A DNA stretch of 64,000 bases from an uncultured Actinomycetes bacterium (GTDB lineage Bacteria; Actinomycetota; Thermoleophilia; Gaiellales; Gaiellaceae), in NCBI GenBank assembly GCA_963759365.1, contig CAVWYX010000007.1, forward strand, positions 29,422 to 93,421. Reading direction: 5' to 3'. The translations under genes and the position numbers were made by a program. Each line of letters starts with the position of its first letter. The first letter of the stretch is position 1. Below, in pieces: positions 2,630 to 53,033 of this stretch. The notes below the pieces were generated by a model. It was given only the letters and a program-made list of their open reading frames with translations, was not told the DNA's origin and did no database searches.

Positions 2630-3658
2630 TCATGGCCCGCAGCACGGCGTCCTCTTGAGGTTAGCTCTCTTCGCGACGATGTCCGCTGCGACCTCTTCCA
2701 GAGCGTCCCGGTCGAGTTCTTCTGCAGCCGCGGGCATGACCTTGGCCGTGGTCTTGGCGCGCAGCGTCGCCGTTCGCCTCCCACCCTCGAGTTGCGCCCG
2801 CTCGCCGGCGATTGCGCCAGGCCCCAGTTCTGCGACCACTTCTCCGTCAACGACGACCTCGAGTATGCCGTCGAGGACTAGAAACACGAGGTTCGTGTCG
2901 TCGGCAGAGTCGCCCTGTTCCACTAGCCGCTCGCCGACCGCCAGCTGTTGCGGCTTCGCCTTGCGGCCCGTTCCCATGATCTCGAGCGAGAGCTCTCGCT
3001 CGAGCGCCGTCTCGACTGCCGTGACAACGGCCGGGGAGTCTTCTCTTCCCCACGGCGTGTTCTGCTCGTGCGACTCGCGGTACCACTTGTCGAAGTCGAT
3101 CGCCGCGCTCTTCTGGACGAGCTTGCCGTCCTTGTCGTAGATCCAGTGCCGCGGGAACGAGCTCGCGCCGGCGAGCTCGTGCTCGGACGAGCCGTCGGCG
3201 TTGATCGTCAGCGCCAGTGTCGTCCATGCGATCGCCGAATTGATCTGGAAATACGGCTTGCCACGCACGGTCATCGGCGCAGGCATGCCCGTTCGTCCGC
3301 CGGCTGTCCGCGTGAAGCGCACGAAGCCGTCGCCGGCCTCCAGCTTCTGCATCGTCGGGAGCGCAACAGCGGCGACAGCGATCTCCTTGGGTCCGATTTT
3401 CAGGCGCGTGAGCCCGATCCGCCCTCGGCCTGCATGCCCCTGACCGACGATCTTGCCGTCCTCGACGTCGATCCAGCCCTTCAGCTCGTTCGCCTCGCGG
3501 AACATGTCGGCGCGGTGCATCGTCTCCATCGAGACGACGCGGTCGGGCGGCGGGTCGTCGTAGTGGGCGAGGCCCATGCTGAACGGCAGCTTCGGCATCC
3601 CCTCGACTGCCTCCGACGGGATCCAGGAGATGGACGTGACGGACGACTCGATCCGCAT
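2630..3658 (-). CDS. protein with C-terminal cyclic-nucleotide-binding-like domain
   Basis: Start MRIESSVTSISWIP (ATG complement at 3656-3658). The C-terminal part LVEQGDSADDTNLVFLVLDGILEVVVDGEVVAELGPGAIAGERAQL...RTATLRA looks like a cNMP-binding beta-roll. Confidence 0.6.
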   Translation of the reverse strand: MRIESSVTSISWIPSEAVEGMPKLPFSMGLAHYDDPPPDRVVSMETMHRADMFREANELKGWIDVEDGKIVGQGHAGRGRIGLTRLKIGPKEIAVAAVALPTMQKLEAGDGFVRFTRTAGGRTGMPAPMTVRGKPYFQINSAIAWTTLALTINADGSSEHELAGASSFPRHWIYDKDGKLVQKSAAIDFDKWYRESHEQNTPWGREDSPAVVTAVETALERELSLEIMGTGRKAKPQQLAVGERLVEQGDSADDTNLVFLVLDGILEVVVDGEVVAELGPGAIAGERAQLEGGRRTATLRAKTTAKVMPAAAEELDRDALEEVAADIVAKRANLKRTPCCGP

Positions 3659-3738
3659 TGTGGGCCCCTTTCGCGACTTGACCGGTCGCGTTGAGGGTGT
3701 GCCCCTACTTCGGCGCTTACAAGAGTTGTCGGCGAGGT

Positions 3739-4757
3739 TCAGACGTCGACGGTTGTCGCCGTTCGCGCATGGCGGATGAAGCTCGCGTCGTGACCGCGTT
3801 GATTCGCGCGCGCAAGCTCGTCCTCGTCGAGCGCGTCGACGCGCCGAAGTAGATCGAGCTCGTCTCGCAGGTGCGTCCGCATCATCTCCGGGCCGTCCGT
3901 CGCGATCGTGAACTTGACGCCGGCGTCGACGAACGAACGGAACGTGTCGCGGACCGCGTCCTCGTTCGCGAGCGCCTTCGTCAGCAGATTGGAGGTCGGG
4001 CAGATCTCGAGCACGATCTCGGCGTCTCGTAGCGCCGCCATCAGCTCCGGATCGTCGGCGGCGAGAATGCCGTGGCCGATGCGGTCCGGCCGAAGAACCT
4101 CGATGACCTCGCCGATCTCCTCGCGTCCGATGTTCGCCGCCTTCCTCGCCGACGTGGATCGTGACGCCGAGGCCGGCCGCTCGCGCCTCCTCGACCATCG
4201 GCGAGACCTGGGTGTAGTCGTAGCGGTCGCCGCCGCGGGCGCGGGCCGGCGATGTCGACGCCGACGATTCCGCGCGGCGCCCAGCGGATCGCCTTCTCGA
4301 CGATGATCGAGTTCAGCTCGGCGCTGAACGTCCGGTCCATCATCAGGATCAGTCCCGCGCGCACCTGCGGGTACTCGAGGCTCGCGCGGTCGAGCCCGCG
4401 GATCGCGGCGAGGATGATGTGGTCGAGGTCGCGCTCGCCGCCACGGTTTCGCTTCATCGGGTTGAAGCGGAGCTCGAGCGTTGTGATCCGCTGCGAGCGG
4501 TAGGCGCCGCCGATGGCCGCATGCACCGAGCGCTCGACGGCGGTCGGGCTCGACTGGATCAGCTCCGTCCAGTGGTAGATTTGGTCGAGCGCGTCGAGGT
4601 TCGCGACGCCGCGCGGGTCCGAGACGGTGACGAGGCGGTCGAACTCCCAGTAGTCCTTCACCGGCAGCGCGATGCCCTGCTCGTGCGCGAGGCTCCAGAG
4701 GATGTCGGAGGCAACCGAGCCGCCGAGGTGCGTATGCAGCTCGGCGAGCCCTTCCAT
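3739..4757 (-). pseudogene. add: adenosine deaminase, reading frame broken twice (about 4240 and 4135); possibly assembly indels
   Basis: The protein is spread over three frames. First MEGLAELHTHLGGS...GVDIAGP, then MVEEARAAGLGVTIHVGEEGG, then RIGHGILAADDPELMAALRDAEIVLEICPTSNLLT...TIATDGPEMM. Confidence 0.65.
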
Positions 4758-4855
4758 GGAGGAAGTCTACGGGGCGCCGCTCGCGTGTCTGCCAAGGTCG
4801 CGCGGCCCCGTCGGCGAGCCGCAAGGCAATCCGATAGGAATCGCATAGACGTCGG

Positions 4856-5252
4856 ATGGGAGGCGCTCAATTGGACTGGATAGGCAGGTCTCTGCTGCTG
4901 ATCGCCTGCCTGGGGATCGCAGCGCCGGCCTCTGCAGCGAACGGGCCGAGGTTCAAGCCCCGGCCGGGATTGACGCAGGCTCAGGCGGTCCGAAAGCTCG
5001 AGCAGAGGTTCAACCGGACGCCTGGCTTCTCCAACGCGCACTGCAGGTTGTTGAACGGGAACGCCCGCATCGGCTGGCGTCACACCTCGTGCATCGCCAC
5101 GGTCGTCTACCAAGGGATGCGCTACGGACTGAGGACCACCTACACGCCCGGTCTCCTGTTCTCGCCAGCGCACGGTCGTCGTCGTGGCGGGTCTCAGGAG
5201 ACAAGCCGGAACCGGCCCGTGGAAGCACGACATCTTCGTCTGTGCGCAGTAG
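4856..5252 (+). pseudogene. hypothetical secreted protein, probable frame break near 5150
   Basis: Signal-like N-terminus LLLIACLGIAAPASAANG. A natural-looking C-terminus RTVVVVAGLRRQAGTGPWKHDIFVCAQ plus stop (5250-5252) lies in another frame. Confidence 0.35.
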
Positions 5253-5346
5253 GGACGACGGCCGGGATTCTTTCCGGCGCCGCGCATTTGACACATTCAG
5301 CTCGACGGCCGAGAATCGCTCGGCTCATTCCGCGAAGGGAGGTCCG

Positions 5347-5949
5347 TGTGTCCTGGAACCTGAAGGGGAGCTACGTCGAGACGTGCTCGTGCGAGCTCAT
5401 GTGTCCGTGCAACCTGTCTTGGGACCACGGCGCGACGTACGACTTCTGTCGCGTCAGCTCGTCTTCAACATTCACGAAGGGGAGATCGAGGGCACGGATG
5501 TCAGCGGTCTCAAGGTCGCTGCGATCGCGGATACCCCGAAGGTCATGACCGAGGGCAACCGGCGACTCGGCATGTTCATCGACGACCAGGCGACGGACGA
5601 GCAAGCGGACAAGCTCACGGCCGTCTTCGGAGGCCAGCTCGGAGGACCTATGGGCGCCCTGGCCCCGCTCGTAGGCGAGGTCTTGGGCGTCGGGCGCGCG
5701 TCGATCGAGGTCGTGGACGACGGGCTGCGTCACGCCGTCCGCGTCGGAGACGCGATCGACTTCGAGATCGAGGACATCGTGCCGTTCGGGGTCGAGACTG
5801 GTGAGCCCGTTCGATTCAACGGCATTGCCCACCCGGTTGGGTCTGACCTGACGATGGCAGAGGCGACCCGCTCGCGGATCAATGCCTTCGGCATCGAGTA
5901 CGAGGGCAAGACGGGTCTCTCGAAGTCCGAGTTCTCCTGGGCTGCTTGA
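5347..5949 (+). pseudogene. DUF1326 family protein, one frame break near 5457
   Basis: VSWNLKGSYVETCSCELMCPCNLSWDHGATYDFCR continues as LVFNIHEGEIEGTDVSGLKVAAIADTPKVMTEGN... in the 5089..5949 frame. Confidence 0.6.
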
Positions 5950-5953
5950 GCGC

Positions 5954-6784
5954 TTGATCGCCTCGGCACCCGACCAGGCGGCTCCCATTGGAGGTCTGAC
6001 TCCGGCGTTCGCCGCCGCGCGAACGCGGCTCGGGCTCGTCGCTTTGCTCTTCGTGCTCGCCGGTGTCGGCTGGTGGTGGACGGTCGACCAGATGCAGGGC
6101 ATGGACGGTGGGCCGTGGACCGATCTCGGGACGCTCGCCTGGTTTGTCGGCGTATGGGTCGTGATGATGGCCGCGATGATGTTTCCGTCGGTATCGCCGA
6201 CGGTTGCGCTCTACTCGCGCATGACCAGGAGTCGAGTCCCGGTCGCACCACTGCTCTTCACCTCCGGCTATCTCGTAGCGTGGGCCGGCGTCGGGGTGCT
6301 CGCATTCGTGGTCGCGACCGCCGGCGGGGGCGTCTTCGGCGACGTGCTTGCATGGGACCGGGGTGGACGCTGGGTTGCAGGCGCGACCCTCGTCGTTGGC
6401 GCCGTCTACGAGCTGACGCCGCTCAAGGACGTGTGCCTGGGGAAGTGCCGCAGCCCGCTCGGCTTCTTGCTCGGGTCCTGGCGTGACGGCGCCGCGGGTG
6501 GGCTGCACATGGGTGTGAGACACGGCGCTTGGTGCATCGGCTGTTGTTGGGCACTGATGGCGTCGCTCTTCGCGCTCGGGGTGATGAGCATCGTCTGGAT
6601 GGCGTTCGTGGCTGGGCTCATCGCTTTCGAGAAGCTGATCCCGTGGCGCCGTGCCGCGACCTATGGGACGGCGGGCGTTCTGCTCGTGCTCGGCGTGCTC
6701 CTCATCGCGGCTCCCGACACGATCCCCGCGCTCACGATTCCCGGGAACGGTTCGATGTCTCAGATGAACCAGATGGGCGGATAG
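5954..6784 (+). CDS. DUF2182 family integral membrane protein (usual partner of DUF1326)
   Basis: WVVMMAAMMFPSVSPTVALY...YELTPLKDVCLGKCRSPLGFL...CIGCCWALMASLFALGVMS. The start (TTG 5954) is uncertain. Confidence 0.6.
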   Translation: MIASAPDQAAPIGGLTPAFAAARTRLGLVALLFVLAGVGWWWTVDQMQGMDGGPWTDLGTLAWFVGVWVVMMAAMMFPSVSPTVALYSRMTRSRVPVAPLLFTSGYLVAWAGVGVLAFVVATAGGGVFGDVLAWDRGGRWVAGATLVVGAVYELTPLKDVCLGKCRSPLGFLLGSWRDGAAGGLHMGVRHGAWCIGCCWALMASLFALGVMSIVWMAFVAGLIAFEKLIPWRRAATYGTAGVLLVLGVLLIAAPDTIPALTIPGNGSMSQMNQMGG

Positions 6785-6999
6785 GGCGGCGGCACTCTAG
6801 GAGGAGGCCTTCAGCAGGACACCCACGTCCTTGCGCGCCAGAATGGCATCGAGCATCGCGTACTTGGCCTCGTCGATCGCGTTACCTGCGAAGTCGACCG
6901 CGTCGCGTGCGTCGGCCTCGGCCGACTCGGCGCGGAGCTCCGCTCCGGCCGAACGTGCCCGGTTGTAACCTGGGGCCCGTGCCCAGAGGAGGCGGATCC

Positions 7000-7179
7000 A
7001 TGCTGATCCAGCTGGCGAAGTTCGCGCTCCTGTCCGGCGTGATTCTCTTCCTGGCCTGGATGGCGGGCACCGGTCGGGTGGCGTACGTCATGGTGATGCT
7101 CTGGATCGCTGCCGCTCTTGGCTACGCCGTTCTCGACCTCGTCGACTACGAGATCGTCAAGAAAGACAGGCGGCGCTAG
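7000..7179 (+). CDS. small two-helix membrane protein
   Basis: ATG at 7000 preceded by AGAGGAGG. 59 aa, MLIQLAKFALLSGVILFLAWMAGTGRVAYVMVMLWIAAALGYAVL. Confidence 0.5.
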   Translation: MLIQLAKFALLSGVILFLAWMAGTGRVAYVMVMLWIAAALGYAVLDLVDYEIVKKDRRR

Positions 7180-7883
7180 GCGGGGGCAGGCAGCGGCCCG
7201 CTCCTGTCCTGCGGGGTAACCCGCCCCACCTTCGTCAGCAGCAGCGCGACGATGACTCCGAAGACGAAGCCGCCCACGTGGGCGAAGAAAGCGACGCCGC
7301 CCCCGTTCGCGGCCGAGCCGAAGAGCCCGAAGTTCGCCTCGATCAGCTGGTAGAGGAACCAGGCGCCGAGGAAGAACCAGGCCGACAACTGAATCGGAAA
7401 GATGACGATGAGTCCGAGCACCCTCGAATTGGGGTAGAGGACGAAGTAGGCGCCGAGCACGGCGGCGATCGCGCCGCTCGCGCCCAGGTTGGGCACGCGC
7501 GCCTCGGCCGTCGTGCCGAAGGCGAGGGTAATCAGCGTCTGCACGATCGTCGCGACGAAGCCGCCGGCGAAGTAGAAGGCGAGGTAGCGGAGCGGGCCGA
7601 AGGCGTCCTCGACGTTCTTGCCGAACACGGCCAGGAAGAGCATGTTGCCCAGGATGTGGTCCCAGCTTCCGTGCAGGAACATCGCGGTGATCCAGCTGAC
7701 CCCCCAGTTCTCAGGCCCGTGGCAAGAGCCGTTGACGGTGCAGGGATAGAAGGAGGCGTGGAAGACGGCCGAGCGCAGGTGCGGTAGCTCGTAGAAAAGC
7801 CAGACCGCGAAGTTGGCGACGATGATCGCGACGTTGACGATCGGGAAGCGTCGAGCTCGAAGTCCATCGGAGAGGGGAAGCAC
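7176..7883 (-). CDS. rhomboid family intramembrane serine protease
   Basis: 235 aa polytopic ORF with HGSWDHILGNM and GASGAIAAVLGAY motifs. Confidence 0.85.
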   Translation of the reverse strand: MLPLSDGLRARRFPIVNVAIIVANFAVWLFYELPHLRSAVFHASFYPCTVNGSCHGPENWGVSWITAMFLHGSWDHILGNMLFLAVFGKNVEDAFGPLRYLAFYFAGGFVATIVQTLITLAFGTTAEARVPNLGASGAIAAVLGAYFVLYPNSRVLGLIVIFPIQLSAWFFLGAWFLYQLIEANFGLFGSAANGGGVAFFAHVGGFVFGVIVALLLTKVGRVTPQDRSGPLPAPA

Positions 7884-7948
7884 ACGGCGAGTCTTTCACG
7901 GGGTGACGCGCAGGGAGAAGGACGTACTGTGGAGGTCGACCCCAACGG

Positions 7949-8782
7949 ATGGAGCCGCCGATGGCTGACAAACCCGACACGATCGTCCTGATCCACGGGC
8001 TCTGGATGACCCCGCGGAGCTGGGAGCACTGGAAGGAGCGTTACGAGGGGAAGGGCTACAAGGTCCTCGCTCCCGCTTGGCCAGGCATGGAGGTCGAAGT
8101 CGAGGCGCTCAACGCCGACCCGACGCCGCTCGAAACGCTCAACGTGGACACGATCGTCGACCACTACGAGGGCATCATCCGCGGCCTCGACAGCCCACCG
8201 ATCATCATGGGCCACTCGTTCGGCGGAGCCTTCACCCAGATCTTGCTCGACCGCGGAGTCGGCGCCGTCGGCGTGGGCGTGGCTCCGGCGACCGTCAAGG
8301 GCGTGCGCGACTTGCCGCTCTCGACGATCAGGTCGTCCGCTCCGCTGCTCGCGCACCCGTTCAAGAAGTACGGCGGGCTAGACGAGAAGCAGTTCCACTA
8401 CGCGTTCGCGAACACCCTGAGCCAGGAGGAATCGAACAAGATCCGCGAGCGCTATGCCGTGCCGGGGCCCGCCGAGGTCCTGAAGGAGGGTGCGTTCGCG
8501 AACTTCATGCGCCATGCGGCGATGTCCGTGAACTTCGAGAACGCGAACCGGGCGCCGATGCACTTCATTGCCTTTTCCGAGGATCACATCGTCCCGCCGA
8601 AGCCGATCCAGCACATGGCCGAGAAGTACACGGCGATACCGGTCGAGTACAAGGAGTTCCCGGACCGGCCGCACTTCCCGGGCGCGCCCGGTTGGGAAGA
8701 GGTCGCCGACTACGCCCTGACGTGGGCAGTCGACAACGCATCGACGAAGACCGCACCACCCGCAGGCGTCGCGACCGAGTGA
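7949..8782 (+). CDS. alpha/beta hydrolase
   Basis: 277 aa; IVLIHGLWMT and nucleophile elbow GHSFGG. Confidence 0.8.
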   Translation: MEPPMADKPDTIVLIHGLWMTPRSWEHWKERYEGKGYKVLAPAWPGMEVEVEALNADPTPLETLNVDTIVDHYEGIIRGLDSPPIIMGHSFGGAFTQILLDRGVGAVGVGVAPATVKGVRDLPLSTIRSSAPLLAHPFKKYGGLDEKQFHYAFANTLSQEESNKIRERYAVPGPAEVLKEGAFANFMRHAAMSVNFENANRAPMHFIAFSEDHIVPPKPIQHMAEKYTAIPVEYKEFPDRPHFPGAPGWEEVADYALTWAVDNASTKTAPPAGVATE

Positions 8783-8857
8783 CCGATCGGAACGTCGGGC
8801 GGCGGAGTCACATCCGCCGCCTGCCGGCGCGCAGGTCCCGGTGGCATCCTTTAGCGC

Positions 8858-9354
8858 GTGGGAATGGGCCGACGCGCGCTGGTGGCGATCTGCTTCCTGA
8901 CACTGCTCGCCCCGCCCGCGACCGCGGCACGACGGCCAGGCTTCTTTCCGCAGCCGCTGTTCGCGACTCCCGGGAAGGCCGCGTACTGCTACGTCGACCA
9001 GACCGGGGTGCAGGATGCGCGGCCGTCGCTGTTCTGTTGGACGCCGAACGACGGTTGGGGCGTCGAGATCCCGTGGAACGGTCGCCGTGCGCAGGCGGCG
9101 TACCGCAACCATCGTCCGCGATTCGCCGAGGACTTCGGCGACCTGCGTGGCTACGCACACGCGCACGGATCCTGAGCTACGGCGCGCGATGGTTCTACCG
9201 TTGCGCAAATCCCGCGAGGCAGGCCACCTGCCACGTCGGCGGACGAGGCGCAATCGCCTTCACGTGCGTGAGTAGCCCAGGCGGTCTGACGTGCACGAAC
9301 GCGGCGCGCCACGGCTGGTTGATCGGCCGCTACGGCGGACGCCGGCTGTTCTGA
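8858..9354 (+). pseudogene. hypothetical secreted Cys-containing protein, frame break near 9170
   Basis: Signal-like LVAICFLTLLAPPATAA. After the stop at 9175 the sequence continues plausibly in the 8077..9354 frame (SYGARWFYRCANPARQATCHVGG...). Confidence 0.35.
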
Positions 9355-9369
9355 TCGCGCGACGAGAAT

Positions 9370-9771
9370 CTATCCCGGCGCGGCGGCCTCGGTTCTTGCA
9401 GGGGTCATGGCCAGAAAATCGTCGACGTCCAACGCGGAGAGGATCCTGCGAGCCGGAGGCGGCACGGACCGGTGCCTCGTATCGGTGAACACCTCCGGAT
9501 CGGTTAGCGCCACCGTCCGCCGACGCGTCTCGATCTCGCAGCTGCCGGCCGCGAGCACGTTCCGAACCCAGTCGCTGTCCCGGCCGTAGGTCAGCGCGAA
9601 CACGTAGCGGCCGTCGCGGCGAAAGACATTGACGGGCGTGTGATACCGACGACCTGAGCGGCGGCCGACGTGGGTCACGATGGCGAAGCCGGGCAGCCAC
9701 GATGCGAAGGGGCGCGTGAGACGGTTCGTCACACGCCGGTTGAAGTGGGCTACACGCTTCGAGAGCGGCAC
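9370..9771 (-). CDS. DUF385 / nitroreductase-family deazaflavin-dependent oxidoreductase
   Basis: 133 aa; FNRRVTNRLTRPFASWLPGFAIVTHVGRRSGRRYHTPVNVF...ALTYGRDSDWVRNVLAAG is the typical DUF385 pattern. Confidence 0.75.
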   Translation of the reverse strand: MPLSKRVAHFNRRVTNRLTRPFASWLPGFAIVTHVGRRSGRRYHTPVNVFRRDGRYVFALTYGRDSDWVRNVLAAGSCEIETRRRTVALTDPEVFTDTRHRSVPPPARRILSALDVDDFLAMTPARTEAAAPG

Positions 9772-10052
9772 GGCAGACGATCGGCGGGAGCGCAGCCATT
9801 CTGCCTGATGCGTTCGGCCGCTCTGCGAAAGCCTTCGCGTATCGCCCCTGTAGTCACAGGTCGGATGCGGAGTCGACCAGCGTCCAGGAATGTCCCCTGA
9901 GCCGTCGCGTGTGGGCGGCGTGGATAGGCTGGCGATCGTGGCCGAGGCGACCGCAACATGGTCGGCGCTGCGCCAGCGTTCACGAATGACGCCCGAGCAG
10001 GTCGTTTACGAGGTGCCCGGATGGGATCGGAATCTGACGCCGTGACAGCAAC

Positions 10053-10733
10053 GTGAAGGCCCGGCAACTCGCAGAAGGTCTCTGGGCTTGGGCGGCTCCG
10101 CATCCTGAATGGACTCCGGATCGCGGCGGCGTCGGCGGATGGGAACTTGAGGTCGCTTCGTGGCTCCTGGAGAGCGACCGTTCCACGATTCTGATCGACC
10201 CGCTCTTGCCGAGCGATCCGGCGGACGCGCAGTGGATTGAGACGCGGTGCGCCGACCGCGACGTGCACGTTCTCGTCACCGTCTACTGGCACCTACGCAG
10301 CGCCGAGATCGCACAAGCACGCCTAGGCGCGACGGTCTGGGGAAACGCCAAGACCCGTGAAGACGTGGAACACATCGTGACCGGCCTGATCGAAGACCAG
10401 GTTCCGCTACCAGGTGGAGTGATTCCGTTCACGCCAATCCCGAACCACGGCGGCGAGGACGAAACAGCCTTCTGGCTTCCGCGCCAGCGCGCACTCGCAG
10501 TCGGAGACGTCCTGATCAGAACTCCAGAAGGCGTCAAGATCTGGTGGTGGGAACAAAAGACTGATCAGCCACAGCTGGACGCTCACGACCGCGTGCAGCC
10601 AAGCCTTCACCGACTCGTTGAACTGCCCATCGAACTACTGCTCCTTCCACACGGAGGGCCAATCGACGAAAACGCCCGCGAAGCCCTAGCAACCAGCCTC
10701 CGCGTCCCTACCTGGCAGCGCCCACCCCAGTAG
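10053..10733 (+). CDS. MBL-fold-like protein (degenerate metal motif); last gene before the array
   Basis: 226 aa. Overall beta-lactamase-fold-like pattern (ILIDPLLP...HVLVTVYWHLRS...LLLPHGGP). The stop at 10731-10733 abuts junction remnant J1. Confidence 0.5.
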   Translation: MKARQLAEGLWAWAAPHPEWTPDRGGVGGWELEVASWLLESDRSTILIDPLLPSDPADAQWIETRCADRDVHVLVTVYWHLRSAEIAQARLGATVWGNAKTREDVEHIVTGLIEDQVPLPGGVIPFTPIPNHGGEDETAFWLPRQRALAVGDVLIRTPEGVKIWWWEQKTDQPQLDAHDRVQPSLHRLVELPIELLLLPHGGPIDENAREALATSLRVPTWQRPPQ

Positions 10734-10768
10734 CCGTGGGCGGGAATCGCCGCGACGCCACGCGGGGG
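10734..10768 (+). repeat. J1: degenerate R remnant (left end of array)
   Basis: ccgtgggcGGGAATcgccgcGACGCCaCGCGGGGG aligns with the R tail plus first bases of the cassette at 35680-35708 (GGGAATGTCACCCGACGCCGCCGCGGGGG). Confidence 0.5.
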
Positions 10769-10875
10769 TCATTCGTCGTCGTGGTCGGTGTTCGCGGTTC
10801 GATACTGCGGCCGCCCGGTGGGCCGGTAGACCTGGATCGTCACGCCCTTCGAGTCGGCTCGCGAGTCGTCGACAT
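10769..10875 (-). pseudogene. C-terminal fragment of RibD_C/DHFR-like gene
   Basis: About 105 nt collinear with 35710-35815. It encodes ...SRADSKGVTIQVYRPTGRPQY..DDE plus stop; there is no N-terminal part. Confidence 0.7.
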
Positions 10876-10897
10876 CGCCCGCTAGATACAGATGCGC

Positions 10898-11007
10898 GGG
10901 CTGCGCGAGCGTCCTCTCCCCCAGGTCTCGGTAGTTCAGGTATTACCGCTACTCCGTAGTTGGAGAGAGAACCCTCGCCTGGGCGAGTTTTGCGGAATGA
11001 CGCCCGA
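10898..11007 (+). repeat. J2: full junction L-M(v1)-H-R
   Basis: cgggctgcgcgagcgtcctctccc...ggtattaccgctactccgtagttggagagagaaccctcgcctgggcgagttttgcggaatgacgcccga. Confidence 0.9.
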
Positions 11008-11037
11008 CGACCGACGATCGTTGGCACGATCCAGATC

Positions 11038-11467: not shown

Positions 11468-11502
11468 GTCGGCTGGGCCAGTGTTCGGGAATGTCACCTG
11501 AG
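11468..11502 (+). repeat. J3: R-only junction
   Basis: gtcggctgggccagtgttcgggaatgtcacctgag. Confidence 0.9.
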
Positions 11503-11503
11503 T

Positions 11504-12016
11504 TTGCGGCAGTTAGCGTTAACGGCCGTGCGGGAGGGCTCGGGACAGCTTGTCCTTCGCGAGATCGAAGATCGTGATCTCGGCGTGCTGTTCGAGCACT
11601 CGAGGGATCGCGACGCTATACGGATGGCCGCGTTCACTTCGCCGGAGGCCGATGATCGAACGAGCTTCGAGCGACGGTGGGCGCGGCTGAGGAGCGACGG
11701 CTTTACGAGGAACAGGGTCGTCGAGATCGACGGTCGAGTTGTGGGTCACATTGCGAGCTTCGACTTGGAGGGTCACCGCGAGGTCACCTATTGGATCGGC
11801 CGTGAAGATTGGGGCCGCGGCATTGCCACGCGTGCCCTGCAAGAGTTCTTGCAGCTGGAGGCAACCCGTCCGCTTTACGCTCACGCTGCGAGCGACAACG
11901 CCGCGTCGATTCGTGTGTTGACGAAGTGCGGTTTCCTTATCGTGGGCGAGGGGCGCGAGTTCGCTCATGGGCGCAACGAGGAAACGGACGAGGTCGTCCT
12001 CCGACTCGATGCATGA
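11504..12016 (+). CDS. GNAT family N-acetyltransferase (copy 1; copy 2 at 36960)
   Basis: LVLREIEDRDLGVLFEH...YWIGREDWGRGIATRALQEFL. The start may be GTG 11528. Confidence 0.8.
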   Translation: MRQLALTAVREGSGQLVLREIEDRDLGVLFEHSRDRDAIRMAAFTSPEADDRTSFERRWARLRSDGFTRNRVVEIDGRVVGHIASFDLEGHREVTYWIGREDWGRGIATRALQEFLQLEATRPLYAHAASDNAASIRVLTKCGFLIVGEGREFAHGRNEETDEVVLRLDA

Positions 12017-12025
12017 CCCCAACTG

Positions 12026-12062
12026 CCCTCGGCTGCGCCAGTGTTCGCGAATGTTCCCTGAG
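12026..12062 (+). repeat. J4: R-only junction
   Basis: ccctcggctgcgccagtgttcgcgaatgttccctgag. Confidence 0.85.
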
Positions 12063-12849: not shown

Positions 12850-12951
12850 CTGAGCGAGCCTCCTCTCCCCTGAGGTAGTCGGGTATTACCGCTACTCAGT
12901 AGTTGAAGAGGGAACCCTCGCCTGGGCCAGTGTTCCGGAATGACCCCCGAG
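12850..12951 (+). repeat. J5: full junction L-M(v1)-H-R
   Basis: ctgagcgagcctcctctcccctgaggtagtcgggtattaccgctactcagtagttgaagagggaaccctcgcctgggccagtgttccggaatgacccccgag. Confidence 0.9.
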
Positions 12952-12972
12952 CGGGGACGCTTGGTGGCCCGA

Positions 12973-13497
12973 TTAGCTTCCCCGCGTTTCCGGGCGAATC
13001 GGCAGCATCAGTGAGCAATAGCCGTTGATCAGGGCGTAGCCGCTGTCGGTGTAGAGACGGAGAGCGGGGTCGTTGTCTTCCTCGGTCTGCACGACTAGGC
13101 GGAGTGCGCCCGACGCGATTGCAGCCGCTTGGACGGAGCTGAGAAGGGCACGACCGACTCCACGACGACGGTGCGTCGGCAGGACGAAAAGGTCTCTGAT
13201 CTGCCAGAAGTGGGCGAGCCGCAAGGATGCCGGTACTTCCATCGTGATCGCGAAGCCGACGAACCTCCCACTGTCTTCGGCGACGAACGCGCGTAGCTGG
13301 GTGCTGAGGTTCTGTTCCAGCCAACCTATTGCCTGGGAGGAGTAGGAAGCCTCGCCGTAGTGGGCGCGATACTTGTCGAAGAGCTCGGCGAGTGCTTCGA
13401 TTTCGGAGCGTGTCGGTGCGGTCAGAGTCCGAACTGAGACCGGCTCGCTGGTGGCCGAAGGACTGGCATGGGTGTTCTGACTCACGGCTCTCTCCAC
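12973..13497 (-). CDS. GNAT family N-acetyltransferase (copy 1; frameshifted copy at 21237)
   Basis: 174 aa; FVLPTHRRRGVGRALLSSVQAAAIASGALRLVVQTEEDNDPALRLYTDSGY. Confidence 0.8.
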   Translation of the reverse strand: MERAVSQNTHASPSATSEPVSVRTLTAPTRSEIEALAELFDKYRAHYGEASYSSQAIGWLEQNLSTQLRAFVAEDSGRFVGFAITMEVPASLRLAHFWQIRDLFVLPTHRRRGVGRALLSSVQAAAIASGALRLVVQTEEDNDPALRLYTDSGYALINGYCSLMLPIRPETRGS

Positions 13498-13524
13498 GAA
13501 AACGGTATCGCCAAGCGGCAGTAA

Positions 13525-13633
13525 CCTCGCCTGGGCCAGCGTCCTCTCACCTGAAGGCCCTTCCGGTATTACCGATACTCAGTAGTTACACGCTGGATGC
13601 GGGGTCGGCCAGGGTCCGCGATGTCACCCGACG
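13525..13633 (+). repeat. J6: L-M(v1) then variant spacer and R tail
   Basis: cctcgcctgggccagcgtcctctcacctgaaggcccttccggtattaccgatactcagtagtt|acacgctggatgcggggtcggccagggtccgcgatgtcacccgacg. Confidence 0.85.
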
Positions 13634-14437
13634 ATCGCCGTCGACAAGTGGGTTGCGTGTTCGCGTATGTGTGCCTCGGCGCTTTCCCAGCTCTCAAGGT
13701 GACCTTCGGCGAGCAGTCGGGCATACGGCGGTTTGCCAAGAAAGCCGAGGTCGTGAATGAGCTGTGCCTCGCGGCCGCAGCGTTCCACAGCGACATCCAA
13801 GATGTCGGCGGGGAAAATCGCGGCCCCGTAGCCTTCGCGGAAGACATGGATGCGACGCCTTGTCTCGACCAGGCTGAGCTGGGAAGCGGGCATCAGAGGG
13901 ACGAAGCTGAGTAACGCCCAGGCGAGATCCCACGAGCGTCGGCCCGGGCCAGCGAGGTCCCAGTCAATGAACGTCCATCCGTCGGCCCCGCGAACGAGGT
14001 TCCAGGGCGCGAGATCGTTGTGACAGAGCACCTCGCTAGGCCCGCGCGGGTCGCGACCCCCGGTCTGACCACGGCTGGCCGTCCAGCAACCGAAAGCCTG
14101 TGACAGCATCGTGGTAGCGGCGAATCAGAGCGGAGATTTCGGCAAGCGCCTGGTCGTCAGCCACAAGGTCGAAGTGGTCTGGCCACACGACCGCTCCATC
14201 GATGTAAGTGAGGATCTCGCGGCCCCGCTCGTCGATCCCTCGTACGCGAGGCGCCCCCTCGAACCCGCTCGACTCCAGGTGCCGCAGCAGTTCGTGGACA
14301 CACGGTGTCCACGGTCCGGTGGGGTGTCGCACGGTCGAACCGACCTTCACGACCTCCGCGCTCATATTCCCGCCTGAGAGCTGCTCCTCCACACAGACAT
14401 CCTGCCGCTCAAACCAGCGCCGCGCGACCACGCCCAA
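13624..14437 (-). pseudogene. aminoglycoside/choline-kinase-type phosphotransferase (APH fold), frame break about 14040-14105
   Basis: The N-part ORF is 14036..14437 and the C-part ORF is 13624..14109. The C-part carries [13 protein letters not shown] and IDWDLAG catalytic motifs. Confidence 0.7.
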
Positions 14438-14457
14438 ACGCCTCCGATGGGATCTCT

Positions 14458-14563
14458 GGGCTGCGCGAGCCTCCTCTCCCCGTTGTCAGTAGTCGGGTGT
14501 TACCGCTACTCAGTAGTTGGAAAGAGAACCCTCGGCTGGGCCAGTGACTCGGACAGGTCGACG
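14458..14563 (+). repeat. J7: L-M(v1)-H with degenerate R
   Basis: gggctgcgcgagcctcctctccccgttgtcagtagtcgggtgttaccgctactcagtagttggaaagagaaccctcggctgggccagtgactcggacaggtcgacg. Confidence 0.8.
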
Positions 14564-20566: not shown

Positions 20567-20650
20567 TCGGGGATAAACGCAACTCTGTAGTCACGCCGAG
20601 GACCCTCGCCTGGAAAAATTCTCTTGGCAGAGTGTCGAATCCGGGGGCAG
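20567..20650 (+). repeat. J12: M(v2)-H-like with interrupted, degenerate R
   Basis: tcggggataaacgcaactctgtagtc|acgccgaggaccctcgcctgg aaaaattctctt ggcagagtgtcgaatccggggg. Confidence 0.65.
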
Positions 20651-20712
20651 CCGTTCGTCTAAGAGGTGAAGAGGCGGCCGGAGGAGGCCGCCGGGAGACA
20701 AGGGAGGCACGG

Positions 20713-21105
20713 ATGACGCGGTACCTGATCTCGTTCGATGACGGCTGGATGACCTTCCCCGAGGAGGAGTTGCCCGACGTGGCCAAGGCAGGGATCGAGG
20801 TGGTCAAGGAGGCCCAAGACGCCGGAGTGTGGGTTTACGGCGCCGGACTGGAAAGCCAGAGGGCGAGCATCGTGGCCACCGACGGGATCGTCACCGACGG
20901 CCCCTTCCCGGAGACAAAGGAGGTCATCGGCGGGTTCTCGATAGTCGATGTGCCCTCACGCGAGGAGGCGCTGGAGTGGGCTGCCAAGATCGCCGTCGCC
21001 TGCCGCTGCGCGCAAGAGGTACGGATGATCCTGCCCGACCCGCCAGGGCTAGAGCAAGATGTCCCTCGGGCGCGCTCGGCGCATCAACCTGAACCTGCCC
21101 GCTAA
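20713..21105 (+). CDS. YciI-like (YCII/DGPF domain) protein
   Basis: ATG 20713 after AGGGAGG; MTRYLISFDDGWMTFPEEELPDVAKAG...TDGPFPETKEVIGGFSIVDVPSREEALEWA. Confidence 0.8.
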   Translation: MTRYLISFDDGWMTFPEEELPDVAKAGIEVVKEAQDAGVWVYGAGLESQRASIVATDGIVTDGPFPETKEVIGGFSIVDVPSREEALEWAAKIAVACRCAQEVRMILPDPPGLEQDVPRARSAHQPEPAR

Positions 21106-21137
21106 GGCGGATCGTAGTCGCGGTTTCGGCAGAACCT

Positions 21138-21215
21138 GGGTAGTCCGGTATCACCGCTACTCAGTAGTTGGAGAGGGAACCCTCGCCTGGGCCAGGTTCC
21201 GGAATGACCCCCGAG
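21138..21215 (+). repeat. J13: M(v1)-H-R
   Basis: gggtagtccggtatcaccgctactcagtagttggagagggaaccctcgcctgggccaggttccggaatgacccccgag. Confidence 0.85.
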
Positions 21216-21236
21216 CGGGGACGCTCGGTGGCCCGA

Positions 21237-21760
21237 TTAGCTTCCCCGCGTTTCCGGGCGAATCGGCAGCATCAGTGAGCAATAGCCGTTGATCAGGGCG
21301 TAGCCGCTGTCGGTGTAGAGACGGAGAGCGGGGTCGTTGTCTTCCTCGGTCTGCACGACTAGGCGGAGTGCGCCCGACGCGATTGCAGCCGATCGGACGG
21401 AGCTGAGAAGGGCACGACCGACTCCACGACGACGGTGCGTCGGCAGGACGAAAAGGTCTCTGATCTCCCAGAAGTGCGCGAGCCGCAAGGATGCCGGTAC
21501 TTCCATCGCGATCGCGAAGCCGACGAACCTCCCACTGCTTCGGCGACGAACGCGCGTAGGTGCGTGCTGAGGTTCTGTTCCAGCCAACCTATCGCCTGGG
21601 AGGAGTAGGAAGCCTCGCCGTAGTGGGCGCGATACTTGTCGAAGAGCTCGGCGAGTGCTTCGATTTCGCTGCGTGTCGGTGCGGTCAGAGTCCGAACTGA
21701 GACCGGCTCGCCGGTGGCTGAAGGACTGGGATGGGTCTTCTGACTCACGGCTCTCTCCAC
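21237..21760 (-). pseudogene. GNAT acetyltransferase, near-identical copy of 12973..13497 with a 1-nt deletion
   Basis: Collinear with 12973-13497. ctgtcttcggcg in copy 1 reads ctgcttcggcg here (about 21535), which splits the ORF into 21237..21587 and 21359..21838. Confidence 0.75.
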
Positions 21761-21787
21761 GAAAACGGTATCGCCAAGCGGCAGTAA

Positions 21788-21913
21788 CCTCGCCTGGGCC
21801 AGCGTTCTCTCACCTGAAGGCCCTTCCGGTATTACCACTACTCAGTAGTTGGAGAAAGAACCCTCGCTGCAGAGAACCCTCGCCTGCGCCAGCGTTCGGG
21901 AATGTCACTCGGG
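21788..21913 (+). repeat. J14: full L-M(v1)-H-R with internal H duplication
   Basis: cctcgcctgggccagcgttctctcacctgaaggcccttccggtattaccactactcagtagttggagaaagaaccctcgc tgc agagaaccctcgcctgcgccagcgttcgggaatgtcactcggg. Confidence 0.9.
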
Positions 21914-25995: not shown

Positions 25996-26107
25996 CCCTC
26001 GCGTGTGCGAGCGTACTATCGCTTGGGAGCTAGTCGGGGATAAAGACAACTCTGTAGTTGGAGAGAGAACCCTCGCCTGCGCCAGCGTTCAGGAATGTTC
26101 CCCGGAG
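25996..26107 (+). repeat. J17: full L-M(v2)-H-R
   Basis: ccctcgcgtgtgcgagcgtactatcgcttgggagctagtcggggataaagacaactctgtagttggagagagaaccctcgcctgcgccagcgttcaggaatgttccccggag. Confidence 0.9.
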
Positions 26108-26130
26108 ATCGCGCTCCTAAGATAGAGGGG

Positions 26131-26532
26131 GTGTCGCTGCCCGTGACGCTTCCCCTCATCGACCACTTGGCCTTGCGGGTACGTGACGTCAGACGCAGCC
26201 GCACCTTCTACGAGCGGGCCCTCGAGCCGTTCGGAGTGAAGGTGGTGGAGAGCTCGCAGGGGCCTGGGTTTGCCATCGAGGGCGGTGGAGACTTCTGGAT
26301 CGGAGAAGGAGAACCCCCGGCCGCGCCCGTTCATGTGGCCTTCGCCGCAGCAGACCGAGCCACCGTTGACAGGTTCCACCGCGCCGCTGTCGAAGCCGGC
26401 GGCCGCGACAACGGCGCGCCGGGCCTTCGCCCGCATTACCACGCCGGGTATTACGCAGCGTTCGTCATTGACCCGGACGGGAACAACGTCGAAGCGGTCT
26501 TCCACGGAGACCGCCAGATGCCGGCCGCGTGA
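26131..26532 (+). CDS. VOC/glyoxalase family protein
   Basis: GTG 26131 after GAGGGG; IDHLALRVRDVRRSRTFYERALEPFG...YAAFVIDPDGNNVEAVFH. Confidence 0.8.
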   Translation: MSLPVTLPLIDHLALRVRDVRRSRTFYERALEPFGVKVVESSQGPGFAIEGGGDFWIGEGEPPAAPVHVAFAAADRATVDRFHRAAVEAGGRDNGAPGLRPHYHAGYYAAFVIDPDGNNVEAVFHGDRQMPAA

Positions 26533-27907: not shown

Positions 27908-28026
27908 GGTCGGGTATTAGCGCTACTCAGTAGTTACACGCCGTATGCGGAGTCGGCCGGCGCTGCCTACTGGGGCTCGGCGTTGGGTCCGAGACCTGCG
28001 GCGGTGTTCTGGAATGTCGCTCGAGG
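27908..28026 (+). repeat. J20: M(v1), variant spacer, R tail (no L)
   Basis: ggtcgggtattagcgctactcagtagtt|acacgccgtatgcggagtcggccgg...gcggtgttctggaatgtcgctcgagg. Confidence 0.75.
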
Positions 28027-29451: not shown

Positions 29452-29668
29452 GAGGCGCCCCCTCGAACCCGCTCGACTCCAGGTGCCGCAGCAGTTCGTG
29501 GACACACGGTGTCCACGGTCCGGTGGGGCGTCGCACGGTCGAACCGACCTTCACGACCTCCGCGCTCATATTCCCGCCTGAGAGTTGCTCCTCCACACAG
29601 ACATCCTGACGCTCAAACCAGCGCGGCGCGAACACGCCCAAACGCCTCCGATGGGATCTCTGGGCGCG
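29452..29668 (-). pseudogene. N-terminal fragment of the APH-like phosphotransferase (duplicate of 14236-14460)
   Basis: About 215 nt nearly identical to 14236-14460. It encodes MSAEVVKVGSTVRRPTGPWTPCVHELLRHLESSGFEGAP and then stops being homologous. Confidence 0.7.
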
Positions 29669-35589: not shown

Positions 35590-35697
35590 CCCTTTGGGTG
35601 AGCGTGCTGTCACTAGAGCGCAGTCCGTGGTAATGGCGACTCTGTAGTTGGAGAGAGAACCCTCGCCTGCGCCGGCGTTCGGGAATGTCACCCGACG
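35590..35697 (+). repeat. J30: full L-M(v2)-H-R
   Basis: ccctttgggtgagcgtgctgtcactagagcgcagtccgtggtaatggcgactctgtagttggagagagaaccctcgcctgcgccggcgttcgggaatgtcacccgacg. Confidence 0.9.
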
Positions 35698-35709
35698 CCG
35701 CCGCGGGGG

Positions 35710-36363
35710 TCATTCGTCGTCCTGCTCGGTGGTGGCGGTTGCATACTGCGGGCGTCCGGTGGGCCGATAGACCTGGATCGTTACGCCCTTCGAGTCGGCT
35801 CTCGAGTCGACCAGGTCAAGCGCAATGTCCGGGCCGGCCTCGGGGAACAGCCGCGTGCCCTGGCCGACGACCACGGGGACGATGAGCAGGTTGATCTCGT
35901 CGACCAGGTCGTTTTCGAGCAGCCATCGGATCAGGGCACCGCTGCCGTGCACCTGCAGCTCACCCGCCGGCTTGGCTTTCAGCTCGCCGATTGCCGCCGC
36001 GAGGTCACCGGAGAGGAGGGTCGTGTTCGCCCAGCGCGGTTCGGTGAGCGTGGTCGATGCGAGGTACTTGGGCTTCGTGTTCAAGGCAGCTGCGATCTGG
36101 TGGTTGCCCGGATCTTCCAGCGCGGCGCGAGCCCGCTCCTCTGCGCCCCAGTAGCCGGCGAAGAGCTCGTAGGTCCGCCGGCCGAACAGGAACGCGTCGG
36201 CGCGCTGGTAGGTCTGGTTGATGAACGTCATGGTCTCGTTGTCGAACACCCCCATGGCCCATCCGCCGCGCTCGAATCCGTTCCTGCGGTCCTCATCCGA
36301 CGCGCCGCCGTTTCCCTGCATCACTCCATCGACGGTGACTTGCGTCATGGTGGTCAGTTTCAT
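35710..36363 (-). CDS. RibD_C / dihydrofolate-reductase-like family protein
   Basis: 217 aa; MKLTTMTQVTVDGVMQG...FGRRTYELFAGYWG...LQVHGSGALIRWLLENDLVDEINLLIVPVVVGQGTRLF. Confidence 0.85.
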   Translation of the reverse strand: MKLTTMTQVTVDGVMQGNGGASDEDRRNGFERGGWAMGVFDNETMTFINQTYQRADAFLFGRRTYELFAGYWGAEERARAALEDPGNHQIAAALNTKPKYLASTTLTEPRWANTTLLSGDLAAAIGELKAKPAGELQVHGSGALIRWLLENDLVDEINLLIVPVVVGQGTRLFPEAGPDIALDLVDSRADSKGVTIQVYRPTGRPQYATATTEQDDE

Positions 36364-36516
36364 GGGTTCGTCCTTTCTCTCGTGCTGGTCTTTCTCGTTA
36401 TGACCGCACCGAGGCGCGGAGCTCATCGGTCGCAGCAGAGTCTTCCGTCCGGCCGAATCGAGCCTGAGGATCTGGAAGACGGAGCTGGCAGAGTCGTGGT
36501 CAACAAAGGAGGCGTC

Positions 36517-36921
36517 GTGTCGGGCCCGTTCATCTTCATCGCCACCAACCGTCTTAAGCCCGGGAAGCTCGCCGACGAAAGGAGGCGAGTGCCAGGCCTC
36601 GTCGACTTCATCGAAGCGAACGAGCCGCGGCTGATCGCGTTCAACGAGTACGTCAACGAGGATGGCACCGAAGTCGGGGTTGTCCAAGTTCACGCGGACG
36701 CCGACTCGATGCGGTTACACATGGAGATCATTGCCGAGCGTGCCGCCGCCGCGTACGCCGAAACGGTCGAGGCGACCACGAGCATCCAGGTTTTCGGCAC
36801 GCCGAGTGACGCCGTCCTCAGAATGCTCGAGCGTCAGGCTGGCGCCGGTGTCCCGCTGTTGGTCAAGCCCCACCACCTCGGTGGGTTCACACGCCCACAC
36901 CGTTGGGAACCGGTGACGTAA
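36517..36921 (+). CDS. ferredoxin-like (ABM-type) protein of unknown function
   Basis: GTG 36517 after AAAGGAGG; SGPFIFIATNRLKPGKLADERRRVPGLVDFIEANEPRLIAFNEYVNEDGTEVGVVQVHADADSM. Confidence 0.6.
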   Translation: MSGPFIFIATNRLKPGKLADERRRVPGLVDFIEANEPRLIAFNEYVNEDGTEVGVVQVHADADSMRLHMEIIAERAAAAYAETVEATTSIQVFGTPSDAVLRMLERQAGAGVPLLVKPHHLGGFTRPHRWEPVT

Positions 36922-36958
36922 TCGTCGGCTGGGCCAGTGTTCGGGAATGTCACCTGAG
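36922..36958 (+). repeat. J31: R-only junction (consensus-like)
   Basis: tcgtcggctgggccagtgttcgggaatgtcacctgag. Confidence 0.95.
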
Positions 36959-36959
36959 T

Positions 36960-37472
36960 TTGCGGCAGTTAGCGTTAACGGCCGTGCGGGAGGGTTCGGG
37001 ACAGCTTGTCCTTCGCGAGATCGAAGATCGTGATCTCGGCGTGCTGTTCGAGCACTCGAGGGATCGCGACGCTATACGGATGGCCGCGTTCACTTCGCCG
37101 GAGGCCGATGATCGAGCGAGCTTCGAGCGACGGTGGGCGCGGCTGAGGAGCGACGGCTCTACGACGAACAGGGTCGTCGAGATCGACGGTCGAGTTGTGG
37201 GTCACATTGCGAGCTTCGACTTGGAGGGTCACCGCGAGGTCACCTATTGGATCGGCCGTGAAGATTGGGGCCGCGGCATTGCCACGCGTGCCCTACAAGA
37301 GTTCTTGCAGCTGGAGGCAACCCGTCCGCTTTACGCTCATGCTGCGAGCGACAACGCCGCGTCGATTCGTGTGTTGACGAAGTGCGGTTTCCTTATCGTG
37401 GGCGAGGGCCGCGAGTTCGCTCATGGGCGCAACGAGGAAACGGACGAGGTCGTGCTCCGACTCGATGCATGA
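36960..37472 (+). CDS. GNAT family N-acetyltransferase (copy 2 of 11504..12016)
   Basis: Collinear with 11504-12016 at a constant offset of 25456, with roughly ten substitutions by eye. Confidence 0.8.
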   Translation: MRQLALTAVREGSGQLVLREIEDRDLGVLFEHSRDRDAIRMAAFTSPEADDRASFERRWARLRSDGSTTNRVVEIDGRVVGHIASFDLEGHREVTYWIGREDWGRGIATRALQEFLQLEATRPLYAHAASDNAASIRVLTKCGFLIVGEGREFAHGRNEETDEVVLRLDA

Positions 37473-37482
37473 CCCCAACTGT

Positions 37483-53029: not shown

Positions 53030-53033
53030 GGCG

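Follow-up and report, generated by a model that had tools for sequence, protein, structure and literature searches.

What moves the genes of a long, one-directional array of gene cassettes that has no recombinase gene of its own? The question is raised by a 64-kb stretch of DNA from an uncultured Actinomycetes bacterium (contig CAVWYX010000007.1, positions 29,422 to 93,421), referred to below as the window; coordinates are positions in this window, and L-numbers (L003, L031 etc.) denote related loci from metagenome-assembled genomes (MAGs) and soil metagenomes. The genome belongs to the Gaiellaceae (Thermoleophilia, Actinomycetota), and the window has a G+C content of ~66%. Its positions 9772-44632 form a chromosomal array of mobile cassettes, with copies of two repeats, M and R, at the cassette junctions. 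We read this array as integron-like but non-canonical and as served in trans by an enzyme encoded elsewhere, and put the probability of this reading at roughly 0.55.

Insertion of the block between core genes

The extent of the cassette block was determined by synteny with L031, a 41-kb metagenome contig of ~90% nucleotide identity to the window. It carries a 93%-identical homologue of the pimA-like glycosyltransferase at 44977-46122, which itself shares 98% identity with a protein listed by NCBI under a Gaiellaceae MAG. L031 joins the counterparts of window positions 9774 and 44633 by a 10-nt spacer (cac|ggcgcgtctt|tca), located between the start of the F420H2_quin_red gene and the stop of the DUF2007 gene. 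The block is therefore limited by positions 9772 and 44632, a length of 34.9 kb. Neither R nor M occurs in L031, and a more distant relative, L032, is likewise without the array. In the window the block lies between co-directional DUF2007 and F420H2_quin_red-like core genes, which are both neighbours in the array-free relative; the counterparts in L031 carry PF04075 (4833-5210, left flank gene) and PF09413 (5221-5445, right flank gene). On either side of the block, the closest two conserved chromosomal genes are core genes of an ordinary kind. The G+C content of the block is 65.5%, as against 69.5% in the right flank, and a scan of the window for tRNA and tmRNA genes found none.

Repeat sites at the cassette junctions

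The repeats were found by a direct-repeat search and by two nhmmer profiles built from the copies. R has the sequence CTCGCCTGSGCCAGYGTTCGGGAATGTCACCYGAG and the core of M is AGTCGGGTATTACCGCTACTCAGTAGT. All significant nhmmer matches to R and M in the window are on the plus strand and confined to 9877-43711, with no copy outside the block in 29 kb of flanks. The 22-nt M core gives 13 matches at up to three mismatches, compared with none in 100 shuffles. With a cut-off of E < 1e-3 the array has 34 junctions, spaced by a median of 765 nt: 14 M-R composites, 14 junctions with R only and six with M only.

The full junction of ~125 nt is built as R*-M-d-R, where R* is a diverged R before M (CTGSGCGAGCGTCCTCTCNCCTGARG) and d is TGGAGAGAGAACC. 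R* and R have a direct 17-nt core in common, CTCGCCTGSGCSAGYGT. The cassette at 26095-26532 is followed by this core and an M-arm in the window, but by the core and an R-arm in L014. Deletion between the cores can therefore produce junctions with R only, and R-only and M-only junctions are shorter forms of the full site. Whole arrays composed of R only also exist, as in L129. Two sequence types of M were seen, GGTATTACCGCTACTCAGTAGT and GGGGATAAAGACAACTCTGTAGT (for example 12877-12903 and 26032-26058), which share just AGTC.G...TA......AC.C.GTAGT. The M-only junctions continue with a conserved YAC (GTAGT|CAC...), and this may point to another type of right half-site.

Repeats that are intergenic and conserved, with a GGAGAG stretch in d, might instead be expression signals (promoters, terminators or RNA motifs) of an accessory-gene island. 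However, neither the type nor the orientation of a junction follows the direction of the neighbouring genes, which argues against promoters or terminators. No promoter, terminator or leader-peptide signal is conserved at a fixed distance at R or M, and the same is true of -10/-35 elements and start codons. Rfam gave no junction match, either at gathering threshold in the window or even at E <= 5 in the array. Finally, cassette homology breaks exactly at the repeats, and an explanation by expression signals is hardly credible.

Cassettes as independent mobile units

The block comprises ~35 cassettes of 0.4-4.5 kb each. The genes in them encode GNAT, methyltransferase, RibD_C, cupin, glyoxalase, SnoaL, NUDIX and metallo-beta-lactamase (MBL) proteins, and further alpha/beta hydrolases, MFS, LanC-like and AlkZ-like proteins. 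The cassettes act as independent mobile units, being found both as duplicates within the array and in other MAGs with different neighbours. In addition to the duplicates given in Table 1, the stretch 14248-14465 recurs at 29452-29668 with 97% identity. Other MAGs share ten of the window's cassettes, at 82-96% identity and beside different neighbours; the loci concerned are L003, L004, L005, L011, L014, L015, L017, L022, L027 and L030.

A gapped comparison of cassette ends shows which parts of the junction travel with which cassette. The M core, including its rare variants of the GGTATCACC or GGGGATAAAGACAACTCTGTAGT type, goes with the upstream cassette. Homology of the downstream cassette starts right after ..GTAGT, and R remains with the downstream cassette. 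This limit is seen at window 20578/21168 in comparison with L005 and L027, at 26049 with L014, and at 37544 with L003. Over all loci, shared alignments most often stop 0 to +2 nt from GTAGT (56 cases) and most often begin at +3 (20 cases), counts that include redundant contig pairs.

In the mechanism we propose, cassettes would be inserted, excised and duplicated by site-specific recombination at the junction sites, the recombining enzyme being encoded elsewhere in the genome. Exchange would take place at M, near GTAGT|, and possibly also at R. The M core belongs to the 3' end of the upstream cassette, and the next cassette begins right after ..GTAGT, often with d and R.

A preliminary description of the window had offered three options, namely an array served in trans, a recombinase gene lying outside the window, or a fossil. 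The last is contradicted by intra-array duplicates of 97-98% identity and by cassettes shared between genomes: since single cassettes recur in different neighbourhoods at the identities given above, the system is not a fossil. Service in trans is the best supported of the three.

A further 150-nt stretch is common to 36324-36474 and 40864-41013 at 90% identity. It spans the 5' ends and upstream leaders of the minus-strand RibD_C gene 35710-36693 and of the open reading frame (ORF) 40257-40967, and may be a common leader or promoter, or a sign that these genes are paralogues.

Distribution in soil Actinomycetota

An exact-pattern scan with the M core yielded 28 genuine loci, all from soil Actinomycetota MAGs assigned to Gaiellaceae, Solirubrobacterales, Thermoleophilia or "uncultured Actinomycetes", some of which have several loci per MAG. 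Soil metagenomes contributed 90 more loci, and most of the loci have several R and M copies. Co-oriented arrays with the same repeats are present in ~115 soil Actinomycetota loci, and all copies are on one strand in 116 of 117 related loci. Searches of plasmid and phage collections with the composite, and of IMG/VR viral contigs with the M pattern, gave no match. The R pattern matched IMG/VR 27 times; nearly all of these matches fall in one conserved gene of contigs with ~50% GC (likely enteric prophages), the rest are isolated, and they were rejected as chance. In the library of papers searched, none of relevance was found on cassette arrays in Gaiellales, Thermoleophilia or Actinomycetota.

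Comparison with integrons and single-strand transposition

Integrons are the textbook bacterial means of stockpiling and shuffling accessory genes. The block resembles them, and clusters of attC sites lacking integrases (CALIN), in being a long one-directional array of gene-sized cassettes between similar sites. Its accessory genes (GNAT, RibD_C/DHFR-like, glyoxalase, cupin and methyltransferase) are of the same kind, and architecture and gene content together recall sedentary chromosomal integrons. Moreover, cassettes are duplicated within the array, the same cassette occurs in different arrays, and no integrase adjoins the array, as in CALIN. The block could accordingly be a divergent true integron, with IntI outside the window or elsewhere in the genome and with the junctions as lineage-specific attC sites. 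Two details of the junctions fit: an imperfect inverted repeat in the composites, GCGAGCGTCCTCTC / GAGAGAGAACCCTCGC, pairs in 73% of cells compared with ~40% when the partners are slid, and ..GTAG|TTGGAG resembles G|TTRRRY.

The sites are nevertheless conserved in sequence and not in structure. In attC sites the R'' and R' boxes are 50-150 nt apart; no complementary R''/R' box pair of the attC form RYYYAAC...GTTRRRY is present in the 34.9 kb of 9772-44632, where Markov controls have 0.48. RNAalifold found no consensus hairpin in 22 aligned composites, and for a hairpin given by hand, 63% of all cells pair and covariation is at the level of shuffles (254/500). The inverted repeat of the composites, too, does not covary beyond shuffles. 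Unlike an integron, the array has two site modules, M and R, and the apparent crossover lies mid-site, after GTAGT, so that ~48 conserved nt and not 6 are left on the next cassette. Whereas the ORFs of integron cassettes are mostly co-oriented and promoterless, the cassette genes here number ~23 on the plus strand and ~17 on the minus strand (~42% opposite), and arrays stand at several loci per genome. Neither IntI, attI nor Pc was seen in the window. The 64 kb have no tyrosine-recombinase signal, their flanking parts being core genes syntenic with L031, and no distinct attI-like element is found at either end of the block, where both ends are decayed M or R copies. That a canonical intI and its attI lie directly beyond the window is unlikely, because the flanks (9.7 kb left, 19 kb right) consist of core or ordinary genes with no integrase, and those in L031 show none either. 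Actinobacteria are also reported to be without complete integrons (PMC9024848). We regard a divergent integron as very improbable. CALIN are defined by two or more attC sites with no integron integrase within ~4 kb. The CALIN label of the preliminary description is apt in that no integrase stands beside the array; in the box and folding tests the sites show neither the attC boxes nor a covarying hairpin, and the label is kept as an analogy only.

The M core holds two short adjacent palindromes, CGGTATTACCG and CTACTCAGTAG; the second, helix 6, is paired in 89% of cells, and the cassette limit falls 1 nt 3' of it. An HUH (Y1) transposase of the IS200/IS605 or RAYT (REP-associated tyrosine transposase) type, encoded elsewhere, might use such palindromes. 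In that case cassettes would be mobilised as single strands, hairpins of the M core would guide cleavage 3' of ..GTAGT, and units inserting 3' of an existing end would produce head-to-tail arrays. The strict polarity of the sites agrees with this mechanism. Along the whole window the cumulative GC skew rises, with the top strand of the sites being the G-rich one; among 56 related loci of 4 kb or more the same applies to 37 (p = 0.02, with non-independent loci and a weak bias). Such a strand composition would fit an enzyme working on the lagging-strand template. The strand and skew pattern may be an orientation bias relative to replication.

Short intergenic palindrome-bearing repeats, a trans-acting enzyme and a strand bias are likewise features of repetitive extragenic palindromes and bacterial interspersed mosaic elements (REP/BIME) with their RAYT, and of the palindrome-associated transposable elements (PATE) of IS200/IS605. 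Those elements, however, are dispersed genome-wide and do not bound swappable cassettes, whereas the repeats studied here have 0 copies in the flanks and bound genes that move as units. In addition, no Y1/HUH or TnpB gene is among the 25 commonest families listed for the window and ~430 related-locus ORFs, and the helices lack covariation. An HUH mechanism seems improbable to us.

Recombinase searches and enzymes near related arrays

The preliminary description had noted no recombinase-like ORF in the window, and Pfam, PHROGs, motif and profile searches over the 64 kb bear this out. Individual Pfam scans of 40 large window ORFs found no recombinase, and none is among the 25 commonest families listed for 150 further window ORFs of at least 122 aa searched against Pfam and PHROGs. 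Regular expressions for catalytic motifs had no match in the window. Three queries were run against all six-frame window ORFs of 50 aa or more: a profile of 79 tyrosine integrases reached E 1.4 at best, a large serine recombinase 0.14 and an IS110 transposase 0.06; all three recovered positive controls in other loci. Beside the ~115 related arrays, too, there is no recurrent recombinase. The proteins that do recur there (adenylate cyclase-ATPase, MFS, cupin, extracytoplasmic function (ECF) sigma factor, WbsX, YCII and RibD_C) were considered, and none is a recombinase. With none in the window and none recurrent beside the related arrays, action in trans is therefore the best reading.

A known system with a comparable division of labour is that of the pdif (Xer-dependent dif) modules of Acinetobacter plasmids, which have 28-bp sites in alternating orientation per module. 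There, as proposed here, discrete gene modules between short conserved sites are moved by a recombinase encoded elsewhere, on the chromosome. The sites of the present array differ in being all direct and 45-125 nt long. By inspection no 11-6-11 dyad is evident in R or M, and only a stretch of 6-7 nt (ATGTCA) may resemble an actinobacterial XerD arm.

Two kinds of recombinase gene were found near related arrays (Table 1). IS110-family (DEDD) elements with the ends TGTGAGTGTG...ACTTGACAGACATAGAAGCATC interrupt R sites in L011 and L029, two independent loci, and in both the insertion point is exactly AGY|GTT (CCAGY|GTTCRGGAATG). L011 has a second, diverged IS110-family copy 10 nt further on, and fragments adjoin R in L095 and L009. 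The other kind is a tmRNA-linked tyrosine integrase family of ~341 aa with PF00589 and PF02899, encoded next to smpB. It is found 0.1-2 kb downstream of arrays in four lineages (L036; L064; L067/L091/L095/L098; L129), always in the order array, integrase, tmRNA. The bridge-RNA-guided recombinases of the IS110 family, or this integrase, could be imagined to move the cassettes.

The cassette ends, however, share nothing with the IS ends. The IS110-family elements appear to be R-specific insertion sequences parasitising an abundant target, by analogy with the IS1111-attC elements, which target attC sites in integrons. The integrase was rejected as the array enzyme. It is N-terminally truncated by an M junction in L036, frameshifted in L067, L091, L095 and L098, reduced to a tail in L064 and intact solely in L129, so that it is decayed in three of the four array-adjacent lineages. 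Two other lineages (L123-L128) carry the same integrase with no array within 10 kb. Its place beside smpB and tmRNA is that of an ordinary island integrase, and the similarity of R to the 3' end of tmRNA is just the 7-mer CGGGAAT. The chance that either enzyme moves the cassettes is very small. Islands of the tRNA/tmRNA type have the RNA gene at one end, an integrase beside it and, at the far end, a direct repeat of the 3' end of that gene. The four lineages resemble such islands in having an array beside such an integrase; in contrast, the window has no tRNA, tmRNA or integrase, its array stands between two protein-coding core genes, and most of the integrases that adjoin arrays elsewhere are decayed.

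In L126 (890-3840), from another genome, the island upstream of this integrase family has a Replic_Relax relaxase-like gene and a large serine recombinase gene rather than an array, which makes the tmRNA locus a general hot spot of mobile DNA in the lineage. In L064 (3364-3810), the ORF beside the integrase tail contains KFDLEDFFPSINF, which resembles a reverse-transcriptase motif; the ORF may be a remnant of a retron-like or group II reverse transcriptase beside the tmRNA locus.

Weighing a dedicated enzyme against homologous recombination

A dedicated enzyme would not be needed if the repeats were portable homology, with RecA-dependent shuffling, duplication and deletion combined with DNA uptake between relatives. 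Such a system would have its parallel in Neisseria, with its minimal mobile elements and repeat arrays. It would agree with the lack of a cis recombinase in the window and in most of ~117 related loci, and it would explain R-only junctions by deletion between the direct 17-nt cores, as in the cassette compared between the window and L014. Near-identical stretches are also common to composites, some of which are identical over ~50 nt, enough for RecA-driven exchange. Most repeat copies, however, are 65-90% alike over 30-55 nt and would make a poor substrate for RecA. The co-orientation is strict, no more than a few nt separate the cassette limits from GTAGT, and the M variants show no mosaicism. 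Furthermore, the 22-nt M core with its two adjacent palindromes is conserved from Gaiellaceae to Solirubrobacterales, which implies that the sequence as such is under selection, as a binding site for a protein would be. Exchange by RecA without a dedicated enzyme is in our judgement unlikely.

Apart from these near-identical composites, several points weigh against a site-specific enzyme acting in trans. The case for site-specific recombination is drawn from the anatomy of the arrays. Summaries by the 25 commonest families could hide a weak singleton match, and the local profiles span one tyrosine family, one serine recombinase and one IS110 protein. The ends of shared alignments at GTAGT partly mark where repeat conservation stops and not necessarily the crossover, and their counts include redundant contig pairs. 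The sharing of cassettes at 82-96% could partly be vertical inheritance with rearrangement. Nothing R- or M-like that could have seeded the array is present at the empty site in L031.

Ends of the array and coordinates of features

The array had been described as sharply bounded, on the left directly after a core-like MBL-fold gene (10053) and on the right at 43701, ~155 nt before a core-like NAD(P)H-binding gene (43858). A look at these two genes in an array-free relative had been proposed, and L031 places the insertion at 9772/44632, outside both of them. On the left, the degenerate R arm J1 is indeed present directly after the MBL stop codon; it is not the left end, since R and M copies lie further left. 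With R at 9877 and 9968 and a degenerate M at 9827 to its left, the MBL gene is an R-led cassette inside the block, absent from L031, and not a core gene. The stretch 9850-9882 resembles those following M at 13582-13614 and 27930-27962 (direct-repeat family D20). The ~105-nt C-terminal remnant of a DHFR-like gene reported next to J1 is confirmed as a RibD_C remnant on the minus strand, which matches the C-terminus of the intact RibD_C gene 35710-36693(-) at 87-90% nucleotide identity; positions 10741-10868 and 35680-35809 are 87% identical.

On the right, the lone M (J38) taken as the end of the array is present, with a class-2 right flank (GTAGT|CACCGAG), but the NAD(P)H cassette lies beyond it. 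The start of the NAD(P)H ORF at 43858 was correct, and its status as core was not: 90%-identical proteins are encoded in L007 (6772R...7573M) and L018, there between an intact R and R*-M. In the window the R of this cassette is decayed and its downstream M is gone. Because the MBL and NAD(P)H genes are cassettes, the earlier boundaries were ~1 kb too narrow on each side. The terminal sites at both ends are the most decayed copies, and the array ends therefore fade instead of being sharp.

A second segment missing from L031 is repeat-free and 3.6 kb long (5253-8839). It holds genes for a PpoB2 copper chaperone, a rhomboid protease and an alpha/beta hydrolase and part of a DUF1326 gene, and is a separate insertion or deletion adjoining the array locus.

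Table 1. Positions of features in the window and in related loci
Feature	Sequence	Position	Strand	Remarks
Segment syntenic with L031 1731-4312	Window	2662-5252		91% identity
Segment syntenic with L031 4318-5213	Window	8840-9774		81% nucleotide identity
Left core flank, F420H2_quin_red-like gene	Window	9370-9771	-	GTG start (9769-9771) abuts block
Leftmost site, degenerate M GAAAGCCTTCGCGTATCGCCCCTGTAGT	Window	9827-9854	+	Direct sequence reading; followed by CAC as in class-2 M flanks
R copy outside the earlier left boundary	Window	9877-9906	+	nhmmer E 8.5e-6; repeat families D8, D13
R copy leading MBL cassette	Window	9968-9999	+	53 nt upstream of start codon; nhmmer E 3.4e-7; families D6, D9
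MBL-fold gene	Window	10053-10733	+	Pfam Lactamase_B; stop TAG; between R 9968 and J1
J1, degenerate R arm GGGCGGGAATCGCC / CCGTGGGCGGGAATCGCCGCGACGCC	Window	10734-10760	+	Aligns with R and leader 35680-35709
RibD_C (DHFR-like) C-terminal remnant, ~35 aa	Window	10761-10868	-	Translation ...VDDSRADSKGVTIQVYRPTGRPQY..DDE, then stop
First full composite junction R*-M-d-R, ~125 nt	Window	10889-11013	+	M match E 2e-13, R match E 1.5e-11
GNAT cassette, copy 1	Window	11468-12035	+	Copy 2 at 36924-37491, 98.4% identical; in L003 at 94%
M-core-to-M-core cassette, GNAT-type gene on minus strand	Window	12869-13587	+	Duplicate 21135-21850, 96.7% identical
Cassette bounded right after ..GTAGT on both sides	Window	20578-21168	+	Also in L005, L019, L027 with different neighbours
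Last full R copy	Window	43243-43290	+	nhmmer E 3.4e-12
Last clear M (J38), core 43679-43700	Window	43659-43711	+	nhmmer E 8.1e-11; 1 mismatch to 22-nt M core
Decayed R CTGCAGCCGGAACGGGAGAATCCGATGA upstream of NAD(P)H gene	Window	43769-43796	+	Aligns with intact R in L007, L018; below nhmmer threshold
NAD(P)H-binding gene, last cassette	Window	43858-44544	+	Absent from L031
Terminal core-like motif CGCCTGAGCGCT	Window	44609-44620	+	12 nt before right flank; direct sequence reading, tentative
Right core flank, DUF2007 gene	Window	44633-44857	-	Stop codon (TCA on plus strand) abuts block
Segment syntenic with L031 5221-16049	Window	44633-55524		90% nucleotide identity
IS110-family element	L011	3070-5520
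IS110-family element	L029	1570-2915
IS110-family element	L095	985-1203		Fragment next to R
IS110-family element	L055	1941-3029
IS110-family element	L009	116-793		Fragment next to R
tmRNA-linked integrase	L036	199-981
tmRNA-linked integrase	L064	3364-3810
tmRNA-linked integrase	L095	8644-9497		Same region in L067, L091, L098
tmRNA-linked integrase	L129	10001-11071

Implications for gene capture in Thermoleophilia

By analogy, we infer a platform like that of integrons and CALIN but with its own kind of site; even the targeting of the repeat by IS110-family elements has its parallel in integrons. As a tentative proposal, to which we give somewhat less than even odds, soil Thermoleophilia (Gaiellaceae and Solirubrobacterales) may own a cassette-capture system that evolved independently of integrons, with sequence-specific, bipartite M/R sites scattered over each genome in several arrays and with a single recombinase, encoded in trans, whose family has yet to be tied to gene cassettes.

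The corrected boundaries and the empty site in a near relative make a defined pair of states before and after insertion, and candidate recombinases can be tested on the conserved M and R sites. Discovery of the enzyme would add a new tool for sequence-specific recombination, one that comes from high-GC bacteria, and would give a handle on gene flow in a dominant, poorly known soil lineage. An array of ~35 cassettes with its own kind of site and no cis recombinase, in many uncultured soil Actinomycetota, suggests that cassette platforms arose repeatedly or use other enzymes.

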